Shown here piece by piece: positions 129-6,727 of a stretch of DNA of 9,363 nt. The first letter of the stretch is position 1. Each line of letters begins with the position of its first letter. A program made the position numbers and the translations under genes. The notes beneath the pieces are model-generated. The model was not told where the DNA came from. It ran no database searches and saw nothing but the letters and a program-made list of their open reading frames with translations. Source of the stretch: Thermaceae bacterium (GTDB lineage: Bacteria > Deinococcota > Deinococci > Deinococcales > Marinithermaceae); contig WFXV01000033.1 in the NCBI GenBank assembly GCA_015490435.1, positions 1 through 9,363 on the forward strand, in the 5' to 3' direction.

Positions 129-169
129 ACGTGTTGAGAGGTTACACCTAGCCCACGGCCAGAAATAGG

Positions 170-421
170 CTACCATTTACGGCGTTTATACGGACATGTA
201 GGCCTCTCGCACTTACGCCGACCTTCACGGATTGCAGCTATCTCCAGACCTGTGAGCAACTCACCGCAGACAGGGCAACGAGTGCGGGTGTAAGTAAAGC
301 TACGCCTGGCGACAAACAAATCTGAAGCCCGTGTTGCGGGGGCAAAGAAGACACTAAGCAGACGCCACAACCACCAGAGCACAGCGACCACCACCAGGGC
401 GGCCAGGAGGTAGCCGAGCAT
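170..421 (-). CDS. 83-aa hypothetical protein: N-terminal transmembrane helix plus a C-terminal Cys4 (zinc-ribbon-like) basic tail
   Basis: The ATG at 419-421 lies 4 nt after the Zot-like stop (TGA TGCC ATG). Residues 3-27 (GYLLAALVVVAVLWWLWRLLSVFFA) are hydrophobic. Cysteines are arranged C49-x2-C52 ... C71-x4-C76. Codon usage switches from GC3-rich to mixed after about codon 19 (near nt 365), so the C-terminal part may be a chimeric read-through. Confidence 0.45.
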   Translation of the reverse strand: MLGYLLAALVVVAVLWWLWRLLSVFFAPATRASDLFVARRSFTYTRTRCPVCGELLTGLEIAAIREGRRKCERPTCPYKRRKW

Positions 422-425
422 GGCA

Positions 426-1295
426 TCAGGCTACCGCAGGGATGGGGGTGGGTTGCGGTTGGAGTTTTTGTTTGAGGAGTTCGTGCGGGGGGACTTTCTT
501 GCGATAGGCCTCGGCGAGCTCGGCGAGGGTGAGGGCGGGGAGCCCGTCAGCGGGACCCGGGCCGGTTTTGCGCTGGGCGAGCTTTGACTCGTCCCAGGCC
601 AGGCCCAGGGCCTCGACCGCCGCCCGGCGCTTGGGATCGAGCTCCTTTTGCAGCTCGATGATCGGGGGCGGGAAGATCGCCCGGGTGTCGTAGCAGGCGG
701 CAGCCAGGGGGTCAAGCACCACCACATCGTTGCGGGCGATCCCCTCGAAGATCGAAGCGCTTTTTTTCTGCATCATGCCCAGGGACTCGTCCATGATGTG
801 GGTGTAGCGGATCACGGGTAGACGCCAACGGTGCTTCGGCCAGAGGAAGAGCTTGAGCCAGAAGGGGGCAGGCCGAGCCCACCAGACATGAGCCACCAGG
901 TCGCGGATCATGGTGTCGACGGAGGCATAGCGCTGGGTCGCCAAGAGCACGTCCACCCCCACCTTGCGGTGCTGGGACCAGAAGCCCAGGACCTCGGTGG
1001 GAAAGAGGCGATACTCCCGGGCGTTGAACCACATGTGGGCCTCGTCGAAGAGGAGAAGGCCCTCGTAGACGTTCAAGAGGCCCTTGTAGTCACGGATCTC
1101 CTCGATGCTGTCGGCGCGAAGGACGGCCTCGCGGTGGGACAGGCGGAAGCGGCGGCGCAGGTAGTGGTAGACGTTCTCCCGGATGAAGCCGAAGTTGGCG
1201 TAGACACGCCTGCCCTTGGCTAAGGCTTCGAGCCCCCGCTTGACCAGCATGTAGCTCTTGCCCGAGCCCGGAACACCCACGTAAGCCTCGATCAT
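426..1295 (-). CDS. Zot / gene-I-like filamentous-phage assembly ATPase (P-loop NTPase), 289 aa
   Basis: This is the true start inside the 595-aa track ORF: ATG at 1293-1295, preceded by GGAGGG (6-nt spacer) and 2 nt after the upstream gene's TAG. The N-terminus MIEAYVGVPGSGKSYMLV carries Walker A (1254-1277). LLLFDEAH is Walker B (1035-1058). This matches the usual Zot-family layout (PF05707). No hydrophobic TM segment is visible in the C-terminal half. Confidence 0.85.
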   Translation of the reverse strand: MIEAYVGVPGSGKSYMLVKRGLEALAKGRRVYANFGFIRENVYHYLRRRFRLSHREAVLRADSIEEIRDYKGLLNVYEGLLLFDEAHMWFNAREYRLFPTEVLGFWSQHRKVGVDVLLATQRYASVDTMIRDLVAHVWWARPAPFWLKLFLWPKHRWRLPVIRYTHIMDESLGMMQKKSASIFEGIARNDVVVLDPLAAACYDTRAIFPPPIIELQKELDPKRRAAVEALGLAWDESKLAQRKTGPGPADGLPALTLAELAEAYRKKVPPHELLKQKLQPQPTPIPAVA

Positions 1296-1297
1296 GG

Positions 1298-1702
1298 CTA
1301 CCCTCCGCCCCGAAGGAACTTGACGCCCTTGTAGAGGAAGATCGCGCCGTAGACCGCCGCCCAGACCGAAGCAGCAGTTAAAACCTCGGAGACCGGGAAG
1401 AAGGTGTTCAGGATCCCGAGGTAAGGGGCAAGCGCGTCGGTGTACCAGGTGGGCGGATCCGGCACCGGGGGCAGGAGGTGGGCAAGAAACCCGAGCAGCA
1501 CGAAGAAGAGGTCCACCGCGAGGTTCACGAGCAGAACGAGCAGGTCCAGGACCCAACCCAGGACAGCCCCGACCAGGGAGCCCAACGCCTGCCAGAGGGC
1601 GCCGAAGAGGCTCGAAAACCAGCCCAGGACGTGGCCGGCGGCCTGGGCGATCAGGTTCGCGATCATCTGCAGGAACGATGCGAGGGCACTCAAGGCAACC
1701 AC
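1298..1702 (-). CDS. gVI-like polytopic small membrane protein (putative minor coat / virion-cap protein), up to 134 aa
   Basis: The protein is very hydrophobic with several predicted TM helices (e.g. LGSLVGAVLGWVLDLLVLLVNLAVDLFFVLLGFLAHLL). It sits between the gIII-like and Zot-like genes, as gVI does in Ff. The start is uncertain: the GTG at 1702 overlaps the GGAGG, so TTG at 1693 or ATG at 1666 may be used instead. Confidence 0.65.
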   Translation of the reverse strand: MVALSALASFLQMIANLIAQAAGHVLGWFSSLFGALWQALGSLVGAVLGWVLDLLVLLVNLAVDLFFVLLGFLAHLLPPVPDPPTWYTDALAPYLGILNTFFPVSEVLTAASVWAAVYGAIFLYKGVKFLRGGG

Positions 1703-1917
1703 CTCCGGGAGAAAGAAGCCAAGGAAAGAGGAAAGCTCTTCTCAAGGCCGCCGGGCGCAAGGGTGAACCCCTTCGGGAACCATCCCCTCCGCGCGGCGCG
1801 TCGCCGGGAGGCGGGGGTCCTCCTGGCGTCCGGCCGTCCCACCCCAGGACCGCGCCGCGCTCCGGGGACGCTTCGCGCCCTTGCGCCCGTCGGCCCGAAG
1901 ACGAAAGGGAGAACTGA

Positions 1918-1938
1918 GGGCTTTCCGGGGGAAAGCCC
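1918..1938 (-). terminator. 9-bp perfect GC-rich hairpin (gggctttcc ggg ggaaagccc) 29 nt downstream of the gIII-like stop; candidate terminator or attenuator
   Basis: Stem 1918-1926 pairs with 1930-1938; the loop is 1927-1929. On the minus-strand RNA it is followed by UCAGUUCUCCCUUUCGUCUUC, which is only moderately U-rich. Confidence 0.3.
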
Positions 1939-1966
1939 TTGTTCCAGGATGCACAAGGTGCAGGAG

Positions 1967-3403
1967 CTACGCATGGCTGGCCCTCCGGGCGATCGCGAAG
2001 AGGAAGCCGACCATGAGGGAGGCGAGGACAATGCGACGGCCGGTGGAGGCGGCCCACTGCATCACGGGGTTGTTGCAGATGTCTATGTTGGCGGGAGGCA
2101 GGTCGGGGATCTCGAGCTGGAACTGCATGTCGCAGGAGCCGCCGCTCACCGATGGCGGCGCGGGAATCCACCGGGCCATGCCCACGGGGAAGCGGTCCTG
2201 CAGGGTATCCCACAGGTTTTGCAGATTCTGCTCGAAGTTCGTGCGGATCTGATCGAAGCGCCCGGTGGGGTCGGGGAGCTCGGGCGGTTCGAGCTGGGGG
2301 AGGTCCACAGGGGTGAGCGTGGGCTCGGTAGGATCGGGAATCTCGTCAGGGTTTTCCTCCTCTTCCGGCTGGCACATGTTGTTGGGATCGTTGGGGCAGG
2401 GGTCCGCCGAGTCCTTGAGGCCGTCGCCGTCGGTGTCCTGGTCCTGATCCACCCCGGGGCGGCTACTGGGGTCGGTGGGGTCCGTACCCGCGTCCCGCTC
2501 CGCAGCGTTGTCGTAGCCGTCGCCGTCGGGGTCGCCGTTCGGTAAAGGTTGGCTCCCCGCGTTCGAAGGGTCCGAACCGGTATCCCACTCGAACCAGTCG
2601 GGCCAGCCGTCGCCGTCGGTGTCCTCGTAGGGGTTGAAGAAGGGGTTATCGTACCACTGGTTGCCGGTAGGTGCAGGATCAAGCGTAAGGCCGGGAAGAG
2701 GCTCGGCGAAGGTCTGGGGGATGTTGCCCTGGGCATCCTGATCGCCGATGTAATCAGTAACCACTTGCTTCACGCCGTCGGCGGCGTCGGGGTGGGACTG
2801 GATCCAGTCGGGGAGGGGTGCACGGTCCACCCCACAGCCAGGACCGTAAGCATTTTGTGCAAACCAAGCTTCGATCTGACTATCACCCCAGTTGCCGTTT
2901 ACCACAGCAAACCCGGGGAAATATACGGTATCGCCGTCGCGCCGCGTGTAGTAAACATAGGTGCTGTTACATACATCGTAATACTTCAACTCCCATTTCA
3001 AGTGTGCGACCCTTTTGCTAATGCCGCCTGCAACACAATCCATGTAGCCGCCTGTTACGTAGTAGCAATAATCCCAAGCCGGGCTGAAACGAAACCAATC
3101 ATCGAGCGACGTGCCAGTAGACTTCTGCGCCTCGTTATAAAACCAGTCCAGCGCGGTAAGCACCAGGGAGGCGCCGATGACCAGGGCGCCGCCGTAGCGG
3201 ACGTAGCGGCCCCAGCGGACGGACTTCGTAAGTCGGTCACTGGTAAGTTGAATAATCTCAGGCCCCGCCAGGTCCTGAACAACCTCTCTGATACCAGGAA
3301 CAAACGGAGAACTGGGGGGTACAGGCATAGGCCGGTGCGCCAGGGCCGGGGAGAGCAAGGCCCCGGCCACCGCCAGGGCAACCAGTAGCCGGGGCACTCG
3401 CAT
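1967..3403 (-). CDS. gIII-like adsorption / minor coat protein with thrombospondin-type-3-like Ca-binding repeats, 478 aa
   Basis: It has a signal peptide (MRVPRLLVALAVAGALLSPALA/HRP) and a Cys-containing N-terminal globular region. Three DxDxDGxxD repeats are present (DTDGDGWPDWFE, DPDGDGYDNAAE, DTDGDGLKDSAD; nt about 2381-2629), followed by a Pro/Glu-rich linker. The C-terminal hydrophobic anchor plus basic tail (RRIVLASLMVGFLFAIARRASHA) resembles Ff pIII. The gene lies directly after the major coat gene (4-nt gap). Confidence 0.7.
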   Translation of the reverse strand: MRVPRLLVALAVAGALLSPALAHRPMPVPPSSPFVPGIREVVQDLAGPEIIQLTSDRLTKSVRWGRYVRYGGALVIGASLVLTALDWFYNEAQKSTGTSLDDWFRFSPAWDYCYYVTGGYMDCVAGGISKRVAHLKWELKYYDVCNSTYVYYTRRDGDTVYFPGFAVVNGNWGDSQIEAWFAQNAYGPGCGVDRAPLPDWIQSHPDAADGVKQVVTDYIGDQDAQGNIPQTFAEPLPGLTLDPAPTGNQWYDNPFFNPYEDTDGDGWPDWFEWDTGSDPSNAGSQPLPNGDPDGDGYDNAAERDAGTDPTDPSSRPGVDQDQDTDGDGLKDSADPCPNDPNNMCQPEEEENPDEIPDPTEPTLTPVDLPQLEPPELPDPTGRFDQIRTNFEQNLQNLWDTLQDRFPVGMARWIPAPPSVSGGSCDMQFQLEIPDLPPANIDICNNPVMQWAASTGRRIVLASLMVGFLFAIARRASHA

Positions 3404-3407
3404 GGCC

Positions 3408-3629
3408 TTACCCCTTGAGGAAGCGCCGGGCGAACTTGAAGGCGGTCATCAGGCCGATGGAGAGGGCGAGGACGCCCACGCCGGCCGCCGCGATCGCAGT
3501 CAGGTTGGTGGTGACCTTGTCGGCGATGGGCGCGGGGTCGATGTCGGGGCCGGCGGTCTGAGCGAAGGCCAGCGCCCCCAGGACCAGAGAGGTGCCAAGG
3601 ACCGAGAGCTTCTTGAGGAACTTCTTCAT
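3408..3629 (-). CDS. Inovirus major coat protein precursor (gVIII-like), 73 aa; predicted 23-aa signal peptide and 50-aa mature protein
   Basis: The preferred start is ATG at 3627-3629, 9 nt after GGAGG; the track ORF starts further upstream at 3662. The signal peptide MKKFLKKLSVLGTSLVLGALAFA is followed by the mature QTAGPDIDPAPIADKVTTNLTAIAAAGVGVLALSIGLMTAFKFARRFLKG. That mature protein has the acidic N-terminus, hydrophobic core and basic C-terminus of inovirus coat proteins. The segment AIAAAGVGVLAL.IGL...RFLKG matches my recollection of the Thermus phage PH75 coat protein. Confidence 0.85.
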   Translation of the reverse strand: MKKFLKKLSVLGTSLVLGALAFAQTAGPDIDPAPIADKVTTNLTAIAAAGVGVLALSIGLMTAFKFARRFLKG

Positions 3630-3681
3630 CTGCATCAACCTCCTTTCCTTTCTTTGCTCCACGCGCGGCCCTGGACGCGCG

Positions 3682-3774
3682 TTAGAGCCGCTTGAGTACG
3701 GCCCGCAGGCTGGCGAGGATCACGCCGCCCGCAAGGCCCCAGAGGTAGGCTCCCCAGATCGGCTGCCACTCCAT
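3682..3774 (-). CDS. 30-aa hydrophobic mini-protein (gVII/gIX-like minor coat candidate)
   Basis: Hand translation gives MEWQPIWGAYLWGLAGGVILASLRAVLKRL*. Its ATG shares one nt with the upstream ORF's TGA (TGATG at 3772-3776). The hydrophobic core plus basic C-terminus is typical of pVII/pIX-type proteins. Confidence 0.5.
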   Translation of the reverse strand: MEWQPIWGAYLWGLAGGVILASLRAVLKRL

Positions 3775-3881
3775 CACAGCCCCCGGAAGAGCACCCAGAG
3801 ATAGCGGTACGCCGCGAGGAAGGCGTAGGGAATGCTGGCGATCGAGACCACGGTGACCCAGGCGGTGCTCGGCTCGAACAT
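3774..3881 (-). CDS. 35-aa hydrophobic mini-protein (gVII/gIX-like minor coat candidate)
   Basis: Hand translation gives MFEPSTAWVTVVSIASIPYAFLAAYRYLWVLFRGL*. It has TGATG overlaps at both ends (3879-3883 and 3772-3776). Confidence 0.5.
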   Translation of the reverse strand: MFEPSTAWVTVVSIASIPYAFLAAYRYLWVLFRGL

Positions 3882-3985
3882 CACCAGTCCCCCACGGCCA
3901 GCACGCCGGTGAGCACGCCGAGGGTGAAGGCGAAGACCTTCAGCACCTCGACGACCTGCTCCACCGGGACCTCGGCGAGGGTCAT
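3881..3985 (-). CDS. 34-aa hydrophobic mini-protein
   Basis: Hand translation gives MTLAEVPVEQVVEVLKVFAFTLGVLTGVLAVGDW*. Its ATG overlaps the ssDNA-binding gene's stop (ATGA at 3982-3985), and its TGA overlaps the next ATG. Confidence 0.45.
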   Translation of the reverse strand: MTLAEVPVEQVVEVLKVFAFTLGVLTGVLAVGDW

Positions 3986-4254
3986 TTGGCCTTCGCCTCC
4001 CCCACCCACTCGCGCACGTAGTGGACGGTTCCGAGGCGAGGGGTGTTCTCCCTGAGGTAGACGCGGGCCCGGAAGGTCACCGGGTCCATCGGCTTCAGCG
4101 CCATCACGTCGGGGACGCTCTCGGGATCGAGGTTCAAGCGCAGGATGGGGCTTTCGTCATCGATGATCAGCTCGACCGTGTGGTAGACCTTGCCGTTATC
4201 GGCCGTGCGAGAGGTGTAGCGGACAAAGTTGCCTTTTACATAGACTCCGTTCAT
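3982..4254 (-). CDS. gV-like single-stranded-DNA-binding protein candidate, 90 aa
   Basis: Its size, its position (after Rep, before the coat genes) and a beta-rich sequence with aromatic and basic residues (GNFVRYTSRTADNGKVYHTVELII...FRARVYLRE) fit the small OB-fold ssDNA-binding proteins of inoviruses. A strong SD (GGAGG) lies 8 nt upstream of the ATG. The assignment is by synteny, not by a recognised motif. Confidence 0.55.
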   Translation of the reverse strand: MNGVYVKGNFVRYTSRTADNGKVYHTVELIIDDESPILRLNLDPESVPDVMALKPMDPVTFRARVYLRENTPRLGTVHYVREWVGEAKAK

Positions 4255-4379
4255 CTTCCTAACCTCCTTCGGTAGTGCGGATCGCCTGTAAGCGCGGTGC
4301 CTATCACCACGCGCAAGGCCCAGAGAAGAGCGCTGCCGTTATCGGCAAAGACGCGCCAGAAGCGGAGGAGCCGAAGCAT
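4251..4379 (-). CDS. 42-aa hypothetical small protein bridging Rep and the ssDNA-binding gene
   Basis: Hand translation gives MLRLLRFWRVFADNGSALLWALRVVIGTALTGDPHYRRRLGR*. The ATG overlaps the Rep TGA (TGATG, 4377-4381) and the TGA overlaps the next ATG (ATGA, 4251-4254). The ORF therefore exactly fills the 'intergenic' gap. Confidence 0.4.
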   Translation of the reverse strand: MLRLLRFWRVFADNGSALLWALRVVIGTALTGDPHYRRRLGR

Positions 4380-5752
4380 CACGCGGCCACCCCCTGATAG
4401 AGCGCAAGGCGCTCCACGTAGCGGTGCTCGAAGACGCCGCCGGCCAGGGCCTCGGGGAGCGCACGGGGTGAGGCGCGGAAGAGGCGGGCGAGGGTGCGCT
4501 CGAGGTACTTGCGGGCATAGGCGACGCGCTCAAGTGCCACGCCCTGCACCGCAGCGGCGGAGAGGATCACGCCCACGGCCTGGGCCAGAAGACCCTCAGC
4601 AGCGGCACGAAGGGGCCGGCGGACGCGCTTTAGGGGAACGCGGATTTGAGCCCAGGCGAGGATGACCTCGGTCCAAAGCGGATCTTCCGGCCAGCGGGTC
4701 TTTTGCTGATTTGCAGTCGGCACCCGCAAGCTGAGCCAATGCTTGGTGAGGTAATACCAAAGGGCACCAAGGTTCTCCACCAGGGTGGGCCAGTCGTGAA
4801 GGTCGAGAAGGCCCTTCTCCGGGTGCAAGAAGGCGGTGAGCACGTCCTTCCGTAGCTGGAACTCGACGCGCCAGACGACCGTGTTCTCGAGGTCCAACCC
4901 GAAGCTCGCCGCGTAATCGCGAAGGAGCTCCTTCGTCTCCGGCTTCTTGCGGGCCTCGGCGGTCTTGCTGTAGATCCGGGCGAGCAGCTTCTTGCTGCCG
5001 AACCGGAACGAGGTCCAGCGCGGGCCGCTAAGGTGCACCTGGGCCTCGGCGAGAGCGGAAGGCGCGGCAAGAAGCGCCGCTTCGGGAGTGCACTTAGCGG
5101 CCCCCGTGCTACTCATGGGGGGGCCGCCCGCGCCCGGGGCGGCGCTCACGCGCTCGCCGCCGGGCGCTTCCGCGGCATCCTCCAGGTAGGCTTGACGATC
5201 GCGGGCACGGGAGACGAAGCGGTAGAGGTCGGGGAGCTCGAAGGGGTTCTCCGGTGAGGCGAAGTCGGCGTAGAGGTCCACCCGGGTCACGCCGATGCGG
5301 ACCGGCTCGGGGTCCTCAAGACCGGCTCGGGCCATGAGCGCGATCAGCCGGGCCGTGATCGCGTCGACGATCTCGCGGATGTTGCCCCCAAGGGCGCGGA
5401 TATAACGGCCGTGGAGCTCAACGCGGATCTGGGGGTAATCATCCCGCCGTACTGAGGACTTCTCGGGGTCTGAGATGCCCAGGAAAAGGGCCTCGTCGCC
5501 AAAGACGAGACCGTAGCGGTAGTGGCGCACGCGGCGGATCTGGGCCCGCTCGAAGTCGCGGGGCTCGAGAGTGGCAGGAATACCAAGGTCGGAAACGTCC
5601 AGAAAGACCGGGCGATCGAGATCGGTTTCGTTGCGCTTGGCGAGAGCTAACTCAAGGCGCTCGTGGAAATCCGCAGGCAAACGGTAGCGCGGGCCCCAGG
5701 AGTACCAGAGGACCAACGTGTCTACGCCGTGGGTAAGCGTGAGGGTTCTCAT
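4379..5752 (-). CDS. Rolling-circle replication initiation protein, Rep_trans family (RstA / gII functional analogue), 457 aa (466 aa if the ATG at 5779 is used)
   Basis: Motifs VTRVDLYADF (5273-5287 region) and LLARIYSKTAEARKK ... VVWRVEFQLRKD (Tyr codon at 4970-4972) match the R.D...D and R.Y.K..E ... WR.E signature of PF02486-type initiators, which are used by CTXphi-like filamentous phages and pT181-type plasmids. The ATG at 5750-5752 has GAGGA 5 nt upstream; the upstream ATG at 5777-5779 has no good SD. Confidence 0.8.
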   Translation of the reverse strand: MRTLTLTHGVDTLVLWYSWGPRYRLPADFHERLELALAKRNETDLDRPVFLDVSDLGIPATLEPRDFERAQIRRVRHYRYGLVFGDEALFLGISDPEKSSVRRDDYPQIRVELHGRYIRALGGNIREIVDAITARLIALMARAGLEDPEPVRIGVTRVDLYADFASPENPFELPDLYRFVSRARDRQAYLEDAAEAPGGERVSAAPGAGGPPMSSTGAAKCTPEAALLAAPSALAEAQVHLSGPRWTSFRFGSKKLLARIYSKTAEARKKPETKELLRDYAASFGLDLENTVVWRVEFQLRKDVLTAFLHPEKGLLDLHDWPTLVENLGALWYYLTKHWLSLRVPTANQQKTRWPEDPLWTEVILAWAQIRVPLKRVRRPLRAAAEGLLAQAVGVILSAAAVQGVALERVAYARKYLERTLARLFRASPRALPEALAGGVFEHRYVERLALYQGVAA

Positions 5753-5785
5753 GATTATCCTCGGGTGTAGGGTAAGCATGAAGGG

Positions 5786-6727
5786 GTGCGCCCCCTTTGG
5801 CTCCTTTTGCTCTTCTTGCTCGCGGCCTGCGGCGCCGACCAGGGCCTTCCGGCGGAGCCGCTTCGCTTCGTGGAGGCGAACCTACCGCCCGCCTACCTGG
5901 GCGAGCCCTACCGGGTCGAGCTCGTCGCCGCCGGGGGGGTGCGGCCCTACCGGTACGAGAGCAAGGGGAAGCTCCCCGAGGGGCTCGCCTTCAAGGACGG
6001 GGTGATCGCCGGCACCCCGAAGGCCAAGGGCGAGGCCCGCTTCGAGGTGACGGTGCGGGACGCGGGGCTCTCGGCGGTGACCCGCACCTTCACCCTCCGG
6101 GTCACCGACCCGCCGCCCCCCGCCTTTCGCTTCGCCCTGCCGCCGGTGGCGGTGGCCGACCCCTTCATCGTGGTGGCCAGGCTCGAGGGCCGGCGCACCC
6201 TGGGGTTCGAGGCCCGCTTCGAGCTGGGCGCGCTCCGCCCCGACCTCAAGACGCTGAAGGTGGCCGAGGGCGCCCTCTACCTGGTCCGCTACGACGAGAA
6301 GACCGGTGTGCTCGGACTCGACCTCGCCTACAAGAAGCCCGCCTCCGGCGGCGAGGTCTTCCGCCTCACCCTCGTCCCCGAGAAGAAGGCGCTCTATAAG
6401 CGAATCCCCTACCGGGCGCGCTTCCTCGACGAGAAGGGGAAGCCCTTCGCCGCCTCTGAGCGGGTCGCTTTTGCTGAGGAGGGCTCTGGGAAGTACGCTT
6501 TTTCCGACCTGGTCCGGCTCGCCCGGAACTGGGGGAAGCGGGCGAAGAAGGACGAAGCGCTCGAGGGCGACCTGAACAAGGACGGCCGGGTGGACGAGGC
6601 CGACCTCGCCCTCCTCAAAGCCGACTACCGCTGGGCCTGGCCGGAGAAGAAGGCGAAGCCCCCTCAGTCCCAGGGCACGCCCCGGAAGAGCTCGAGCACG
6701 CCCGAGGAGAGTTCCTCCTTGCCGTAG
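5786..6727 (+). CDS. Lipoprotein with a He_PIG-type putative Ig domain and a C-terminal dockerin/EF-hand-like Ca-binding motif, 313 aa
   Basis: A GTG start gives MRPLWLLLLFLLAAC, i.e. a signal peptide with lipobox L-A-A-C. LPPAYLGEPYRVELVAAGGVRPYRYESKGKLPEGLAFKDGVIAGTPKAKGEARFEVTVRD follows the LP.G..G..Y...L.A.GG..PY......G.LP.GL.....G.I.GTP pattern of PF05345. GDLNKDGRVDEADLALLKADY resembles a dockerin type-I repeat. Codon usage is GC3-rich and host-like. Confidence 0.75.
   Translation: MRPLWLLLLFLLAACGADQGLPAEPLRFVEANLPPAYLGEPYRVELVAAGGVRPYRYESKGKLPEGLAFKDGVIAGTPKAKGEARFEVTVRDAGLSAVTRTFTLRVTDPPPPAFRFALPPVAVADPFIVVARLEGRRTLGFEARFELGALRPDLKTLKVAEGALYLVRYDEKTGVLGLDLAYKKPASGGEVFRLTLVPEKKALYKRIPYRARFLDEKGKPFAASERVAFAEEGSGKYAFSDLVRLARNWGKRAKKDEALEGDLNKDGRVDEADLALLKADYRWAWPEKKAKPPQSQGTPRKSSSTPEESSSLP

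Follow-up and report, generated by a model that had tools for sequence, protein, structure and literature searches.

A filamentous phage integrated in the genome of a Thermaceae bacterium carries, directly after a zot gene whose product lacks a transmembrane (TM) helix, a small gene that annotation has passed over. The phage lies at about 147-5779 of the 9,363-nt stretch analysed here (contig WFXV01000033.1, henceforth "the window"), as judged from its open reading frames (ORFs) and their Pfam and PHROG matches. The small gene, an ORF for 83 amino acids, is predicted to encode a membrane protein with a zinc-ribbon-like domain. As far as comparison of sequences can tell, it is a solid finding that this previously unannotated gene is conserved, under selection, coupled to an anchorless zot and, in one lineage, overlapped by zot. 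All phage genes of the window are on the minus strand, coordinates refer to the window unless another sequence is named, and labels beginning with L and P are our handles for the loci and proteins compared.

A Zot-family ATPase that lacks a transmembrane helix

The zot gene (426-1295) encodes 289 amino acids starting with MIEAYVGVPGSGKSYML, and a GGAGGG Shine-Dalgarno sequence is found 7 nt upstream. By sequence, fold and genome position the product is a member of the Zot family, to which pI of the classical filamentous phages also belongs. It matches the Pfam family Zot (PF05707) over residues 2-136 (E 3.4e-19, 69.5 bits against a cut-off of 20.3) and phrog_20922 with E 3.5e-107, and phrog_197, phrog_1675 and phrog_1041 are also matched. 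The AlphaFold2 model is globular, with a predicted local distance difference test score (pLDDT) of 87.8 and a predicted template modelling score (pTM) of 0.83, and its top Foldseek match in the PDB is 2r2a, the N-terminal domain of Neisseria Zot (E 1.4e-7). Walker A (GVPGSGKS, residues 7-14, 1254-1277) and Walker B (LLLFDEAH, residues 80-87, 1035-1058) can be read directly from the sequence. When 19 relatives were aligned, G7, G12, K13 and E85 proved invariant and D84 nearly so.

No TM helix was found in the protein. Its maximum in 19-residue Kyte-Doolittle windows (KD19) is 1.08, below the threshold of 1.6, no run without D, E, K, R, H, N or Q exceeds 9 residues, and the longest helix in the AlphaFold2 model spans at most 14. 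The hydropathy method was checked with pI of phage IKe as positive control, and the known TM helix was recovered (KD19 1.75 at residue 255). A preliminary description of the window, made from the letters alone, had reported clear Walker motifs, the absence of a hydrophobic TM segment and a hydrophilic C-terminus, and all three traits are borne out, the last by the terminal sequence KQKLQPQPTPIPAVA. Because the TM helix is missing, Zot has no periplasmic part. The soluble, helical C-terminal region that it has instead (residues ~210-280) is common only to a small metagenomic clade.

A conserved aromatic and basic loop, WARPAPFWLKLFLWP, is found at residues 139-153 (listed as 845-877). In Zot proteins of Thermus phages this loop is the most hydrophobic segment (KD19 1.24-1.46), and in one relative, P0027, hydrophobicity at the same position is TM-like (2.25). 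It might bind the membrane peripherally or serve as a pore loop.

The small ORF encodes a predicted single-pass membrane protein

The small ORF (170-421) adjoins zot, as it does in related sequences: its ATG is located 4 nt past the zot TGA (spacer 422-425, ...GTAGCCTGATGCCATG). A spacing of 4 nt without a Shine-Dalgarno sequence makes translational coupling likely. The pVI-like gene upstream ends 2 nt ahead of the zot ATG. Three genes follow each other in a row, for the pVI-like protein, the soluble Zot and the 83-aa protein not annotated before, and their coupling is likely to be translational.

Residues 2-27 of the small protein (LGYLLAALVVVAVLWWLWRLLSVFFA, 341-418) form a TM helix (KD19 2.24), which the AlphaFold2 model also contains (pLDDT 87-91). 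Both the position of this ORF and the strong helix in its first 27 residues had been noticed in the preliminary description, which did not mention the C-terminal half. This half is basic (14 K/R vs 5 D/E) and carries the pattern CxxC...CxxxxC, tentatively a Cys4 zinc-ribbon-like domain (residues 48-78, RCPVCG...RKCERPTCPY, 188-280) whose cysteines are invariant in homologues. In the AlphaFold2 model, short strands at residues 47-48 and 55-56 have a pLDDT of only 60-73. Matches to zinc-ribbon families are all sub-threshold (Zn_ribbon_NUD 0.01, Zn_Ribbon_1 0.049, RPB9 0.15), matches to PDB profiles all have E values of at least 0.028, and no Pfam or PHROG family is matched.

As positive charges are found only on the C-terminal side of the helix, an N-out/C-in topology is predicted. 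The small protein would thus be a single-pass membrane protein with the zinc-ribbon-like domain in the cytoplasm and, given that the helix begins at residue 2, without a periplasmic domain. None of its sequence resembles Zot, and its frame differs from that of zot.

Conservation of the small ORF and evidence for selection

The frames around the zot stop were read in phage isolates, in IMG/VR contigs, in two metagenome-assembled genomes of Thermaceae and in metagenome contigs. An ORF with a TM helix and four cysteines was found in every intact member of the group, and at least 13 distinct sequences have it next to the zot 3' end or overlapping that end. The small TM ORF is thus conserved after zot in related phages and prophages, and every copy in a phage context follows zot directly. 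Residues R48, C49, C52, L59, R69, C71, C76, P77 and Y78 are invariant in 8 loci, at overall identities down to 28%, and C49, C52, C71 and C76 are also invariant in 10 database homologues.

When 5.8 billion protein clusters were searched with a profile, only 9 members emerged, all from Thermus or hot springs and all labelled "hypothetical". When the 83-aa protein was compared with phages by tblastn, only chance matches were obtained, as the copies of the Zuza type described below are too divergent; these were found instead by reading the frames at the zot stop. The ORF is unannotated in the GenBank genomes of the four isolates phiOH3, phiOH16, Zuza8 and Zuza27, and it is not called in the public records L005-L007; in some other records it is called. 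The literature searched makes no mention of the small ORF or of a TM-less Zot in these phages.

Selection was assessed on codon alignments as the ratio of nonsynonymous to synonymous changes (pN/pS). For the whole small ORF in the clade without overlap, pN/pS is 0.18-0.71; for the zinc-ribbon part, outside any overlap, it is 0.03-0.35. Synonymous sites are near saturation in most comparisons, so that the true ratios would be lower still. On these grounds, the small ORF at the 3' end of zot is to be regarded as a genuine gene under purifying selection. Neither a terminator nor a promoter consensus was found near it.

A stand-alone homologue of the zinc-ribbon domain was also detected. It has 65 residues (P0009, 21 member sequences) and is encoded at 8001-8198 of L016, in the Thermus thermophilus chromosome AP031328.1, between epimerase and AhpC-type genes and with no phage genes nearby. 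Its N-terminus is weakly hydrophobic. P0009 may be a remnant or a domesticated copy.

Zot and the small ORF adjoin in three arrangements

In the first arrangement, a gap of 4-9 nt follows a short Zot of ~287-290 aa (the window, L008, L009, L018 and L020). The exact spacing of 4 nt recurs in L008, L009, L020 and L022, in the last case after a partial zot. In the second arrangement, the small ORF overlaps by 95-104 nt a longer zot whose product ends in DWSRFAWGG (Zuza8, Zuza27, L012, L013 and L033); L010 is of the same overlap type, with a Zot ending in ...EWPWALPAT. The third arrangement, a gap of 147 nt, is found in L017, a T. scotoductus prophage.

In loci of the Zuza type, the last ~30 zot codons specify a low-complexity tail and, read in a different frame, also the TM helix and linker of the small protein (6404-6498 in L003, and likewise in L004, L012, L013 and L033). 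Where Zot has the DWSRFAWGG tail, zot terminates precisely at the first Cys motif of the small ORF, and only the TM helix and the linker are dual-coded. In the window lineage, zot ends right at the start of the small ORF. The overlap looks like a stop-loss extension (overprinting) or the reversal of one, if the compared sequences are a guide. An intact small ORF of 74 aa is found in Zuza8 (L003, PP554188, 6404-6628) and in Zuza27 (L004, PQ109074, 6308-6532). In phiOH3 (L001, NC_045425, 5558-5677) and phiOH16 (L002) a stop directly after GVARC leaves only 39 aa.

Comparison with known filamentous phages

These genes constitute the assembly module of an integrated Thermus inovirus. The phage belongs to the group of phiOH3, phiOH16, Zuza8 and Zuza27 (Thomixvirus, Paulinoviridae) and shares with them the gene order II, V, VII, IX, VIII, III, VI, zot. 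Their Zot proteins (316-318 aa) are 64-67% identical to that of the window over 96-97% of its length and have no TM helix either (maximum KD19 1.24-1.46). Zuza8 and Zuza27 also share the small ORF with TM helix and Cys4 motif. Differences lie at the end of zot: the Zot of the window is 27-29 aa shorter and has neither the DWSxFAWG tail nor the overlap, whereas zot of the isolates continues for another ~30 codons, across the stretch of the small ORF that codes for the TM helix. In the GenBank records of phiOH3 and phiOH16, zot (4705-5661 in L001) is labelled gene "IV", morphogenesis related protein. The phiOH3 paper only notes a Zot domain in ORF8 and states no gene I homologue, and the Zuza paper does not discuss the absence of an anchor or of a secretin. 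By homology, the "IV" gene of phiOH3 is the counterpart of gene I (pI/Zot), and no gene IV secretin is present.

In the Ff phages and their relatives (M13/f1/IKe), pI is likewise a protein with an N-terminal P-loop ATPase domain of the Zot type, encoded right after gene VI, and a common role in ATP-driven assembly at the inner membrane is presumed. The architecture differs. In pI, a TM helix follows the ATPase domain, as in the IKe control, and a periplasmic tail meets the pIV secretin; in the window ATPase both the TM helix and the periplasmic domain are missing. The in-frame restart product of gene I, pXI, does not resemble the small protein, to judge from its sequence: the latter is encoded by a separate, unrelated ORF, has the opposite orientation, lacks a periplasmic part and has an extra zinc-ribbon-like domain. 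The preliminary description had proposed that the 83-aa protein supplies the anchor in trans, as in a split pI/pXI. The part of this proposal that concerns anchoring gains from the tight coupling, the cytoplasmic topology of the Cys4 domain and the domain fusions found in relatives (see below). The likeness to pI/pXI does not stand, in view of the opposite orientation, the lack of a periplasmic domain, the lack of similarity to Zot and the presence of the zinc-ribbon-like domain.

The Zot proteins of CTXphi and Neisseria phages share the Pfam Zot domain with the window protein, and the best structural match, 2r2a, is the N-terminal domain of Neisseria Zot. However, these proteins have a TM helix and, C-terminally, a part outside the cytoplasm, in contrast with the soluble helical C-terminal region of the window Zot. 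These phages have no secretin of their own and use that of the host. In the window, none of the prophage ORFs gave a match to a secretin family, in agreement with the earlier remark that a gIV-type secretin gene is absent, and the genomes of the four isolates likewise lack a secretin gene. Lack of a phage secretin is the norm for the Thermus group and ordinary for many inoviruses. From general knowledge, export through the PilQ secretin of Thermus is a plausible conjecture.

Roux et al. 2019 (PMC6813254) accepted families as pI-like if they had, among several criteria, one or two transmembrane domains (TMDs), "either N-terminal or C-terminal". With no TMD at all, the Zot of the window falls outside this TMD criterion, though its group consists of real filamentous phages. 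Proteins of the type with an N-terminal TMD do occur among the closest non-Thermus relatives, where six clusters match it. Unlike in those proteins, any such anchor in the window would be a separate polypeptide.

Relatives of Zot outside the Thermus group

An exhaustive HMMER search returned 1328 Zot homologues. Among metagenomic homologues of at least 250 aa, 39 of 72 were TM-less, and the TM helix is also missing in eight loci besides those of the four isolates. The classical TM helix is present, at residues ~205-250, in homologues that are distant and long. In the closest ones, the soluble C-terminal region is shared as far as residue ~280; these proteins either lack a TM helix or, in further forms known from metagenome contigs, are fused to an additional element. 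In six clusters (P0017, P0021, P0022, P0024, P0026 and P0030) an N-terminal TM helix and a basic linker are fused to the ATPase, with the topology predicted for the small protein; in L024, the one locus of this kind examined, the next Rep gene comes right after zot with no ORF between. A search of viral contigs for this subgroup gave no match. In four clusters (P0019, P0020, P0023 and P0029) a DnaJ-like finger with two CxxCxGxG motifs is fused to the C-terminus, and in both loci examined (L025 and L026) a small hydrophobic ORF overlaps the zot stop by 4 nt. In L079, the nearest non-Thermus relative without a TM helix, a gene for a DUF418 multipass membrane protein overlaps the zot stop by 1 nt.

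We also considered whether the absence of a TM helix from Zot predicts a membrane ORF downstream, and rejected this idea, because by a rough count over 43 loci such ORFs are about equally frequent whether or not Zot has its own helix.

The C-terminus of the pVI-like protein was compared in the window (1298-1702), L025 (2697-2933), L024 (6207-6605), L079 (4612-5004) and L082 (2360-2635). Its ending, ...(F/I)(L/K)(F/L)(L/I)RGGG or RGAG, is conserved even where Zot is only ~30-45% identical.

A candidate membrane tether for Zot and its alternatives

The best single hypothesis for the function of the small protein, to which we assign a probability of roughly 0.4, is that it acts as a membrane tether for the soluble Zot. 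The protein would be made in step with Zot by termination and reinitiation, and would insert with its N-terminus out and its C-terminus in, so that the zinc-ribbon-like domain lies on the cytoplasmic side together with the ATPase. At the assembly site in the inner membrane it would recruit or hold the ATPase, or a complex of the ATPase with single-stranded DNA (ssDNA), and would thereby stand in for the built-in TM anchor of Ff pI. Having no periplasmic part, it could replace the anchoring function of pI and not the contact with the secretin. The secretin-contacting part of pI/pXI would have no substitute here, and the phage would cross the outer envelope through a host channel or by another route.

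A number of observations weigh against the tether. Both phiOH3 and phiOH16 form plaques with a small ORF reduced to the TM helix, the part coding for the zinc ribbon being absent; the latter is therefore dispensable for virion production, at least where Zot keeps the DWSxFAWG tail. G+C content at third codon positions (GC3) is 0.59 in the small ORF and 0.86 in zot, codon usage is atypical, and a Shine-Dalgarno sequence is lacking; low GC3 and the missing Shine-Dalgarno are probably the reason why gene finders omitted the ORF in records identical to the window. A TM-less Zot is found in the whole Thermus group and is common in metagenomes, and hence is not peculiar to the window prophage. The TM-less relatives L078 and L081 have no membrane protein downstream. 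By a rough count, a downstream TM ORF is present in about half of 43 metagenomic and viral loci whatever the TM status of Zot, and small TM ORFs are frequent in inovirus genomes. For the DnaJ-like finger fused to some relatives, no homology to the zinc ribbon encoded by the small ORF could be demonstrated. Lastly, coupling of the pVI-like gene to the start of zot is seen in all relatives, close and distant alike, and the multi-TM protein that it encodes could be an equally good candidate for the membrane partner of Zot.

The tether hypothesis can be extended to a two-piece motor, in which Zot would dock on the single-pass protein via the zinc ribbon. The anchor would be fused or separate in different branches of the clade: an N-terminal fusion, a C-terminal Cys4 fusion accompanied by a TM peptide, or a separate protein with TM helix and zinc ribbon, and in one lineage zot would have extended over the TM-coding part of the gene for the last of these (overprinting). 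We regard this extension as less likely than not.

Other explanations can be considered. One is that the partner of Zot in the membrane is the pVI-like protein, or other small coat or assembly proteins, or that Zot binds the membrane peripherally through the WARPAPFWLKLFLWP loop; the small protein would then do something else, for instance bind the ssDNA packaging signal. The constant coupling of the pVI-like gene to the zot start fits this explanation, as do the hydrophobicity of the loop and its TM-like value in P0027, and the excess of basic residues in the small protein is compatible with binding of nucleic acids. However, such loops may line the central pore in ATPases of the RecA-like and FtsK-HerA types. 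Ff pVI is a virion-tip protein and is not known to serve as the anchor of pI. We consider this explanation rather unlikely.

A second possibility, which we view as unlikely, is a role outside assembly: the small protein would be an accessory factor or one that interacts with the host, for example by blocking superinfection or modulating type IV pili, and its gene would follow zot only because the operon ends there. In Pseudomonas, Pf phages encode small inner-membrane proteins with such activities. The small ORF is the last gene before an IS110 transposase gene or the prophage end, a typical site for accessory genes; its codon usage is unlike that of zot; phiOH3 and phiOH16 are viable with a truncated copy; and the homologue P0009 stands alone in a chromosome without phage neighbours. 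On the other side, the 4-nt spacing or the overlap with zot is maintained across lineages, distant ones included, accessory genes of inoviruses are usually variable whereas the small ORF is present in all group members examined, and a cytoplasmic zinc ribbon is foreign to the known pilus-blocking peptides.

Finally, it is very improbable that the small ORF is non-functional, either a chance frame in GC-rich DNA or a decaying remnant: the missing gene calls and annotations, the low GC3, the lack of a Shine-Dalgarno sequence and the abundance of long spurious ORFs in the window would agree with that view, but four cysteines and R, L, R, P and Y are invariant at identities down to 28%, pN/pS is well below 1 with synonymous sites near saturation, at least 13 distinct sequences, in three gene arrangements, have preserved the open frame, and gene finders did call the ORF in some records.

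The prophage and its boundaries

Upstream of zot, the coat, pIII-like and Rep genes are found in canonical inovirus order, with Zot directly after the gene VI homologue. The first gene (4379-5779) encodes a rolling-circle replication initiator similar to that of gene II, with a match to the endonuclease family phrog_33635 (E 8e-47) and a weak match to Pfam Rep_trans. A putative ssDNA-binding protein of 90 aa (3982-4254) is indicated by its ORF, by gene calls in L005 and by synteny with genes V, VII and IX of phiOH3. Three tiny TM ORFs (3682-4009) resemble pVII/pIX in hydropathy and in their synteny with phiOH3 V, VII and IX, and are also supported by gene calls in L005. A major coat protein of the pVIII type is encoded at 3408-3662 (Pfam Phage_Coat_B, 24.5 bits against a cut-off of 23.5). 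The pIII-like adsorption protein (478 aa, 1967-3403) matches Pfam TSP3_bac and is syntenic with gene III of phiOH3 and Zuza8; its Asp-rich central region contains bacterial thrombospondin type-3 repeats, which are calcium-binding. The pVI-like multi-TM minor coat or assembly protein (1298-1702) has a KD19 of 2.63, matches phrog_37052 and is annotated as VI in phiOH3 and Zuza8.

Rep, the pVI-like protein and Zot match PHROGs built on Thermus phages of the Thomixvirus type. When the window was compared with the phage collection by megablast, no match was obtained, and relatives surfaced only in the protein-level search. The lack of a nucleotide match indicates that the prophage is a distinct species-level lineage.

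On the left, the block common to related phage contigs ends at 147, which is 23 nt past the stop of the small ORF and is also the point where L006 ends. Three contigs (L007, L008 and L009) diverge from the window at this position and continue into an IS110 transposase gene on the opposite strand. One of them, L007, is a metagenome contig 99.97% identical to the window, and the window and L005 have no transposase at 147. These observations suggest the existence of population variants with and without the IS110 gene, as in phiOH16 and phiOH3. A perfect 16-nt inverted repeat (54-69 and 113-128, with a 43-nt spacer) is located just outside the conserved phage block.

On the right, genes of cellular type begin at 5786: a He_PIG lipoprotein, a 4Fe-4S protein, a TetR regulator and DAHP synthase. 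The start of Rep (5779, or 5752 in the public gene call) lies 6-33 nt from the divergent He_PIG lipoprotein gene (5786-6727), and no phage intergenic or origin region is visible on the Rep side of the prophage (5752-5786). No tRNA gene was found at the prophage end.

Implications

The observations bear on assembly and release in filamentous phages that have neither a pI-type anchor nor a secretin of their own. Thermus phages offer examples of this condition that can be cultured, form plaques and infect a genetically tractable host. The presence of a TMD, if taken as the sole filter for genuine pI-like proteins, would not fit their ATPases. Annotation of every published genome of the group has overlooked a conserved gene, and the small protein that it encodes is a concrete, testable candidate for the missing membrane component. 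If the two-piece motor were true, it would represent a new architecture for filamentous phage export, and a tenth, essential gene would be added to genomes that have been annotated with eight or nine.

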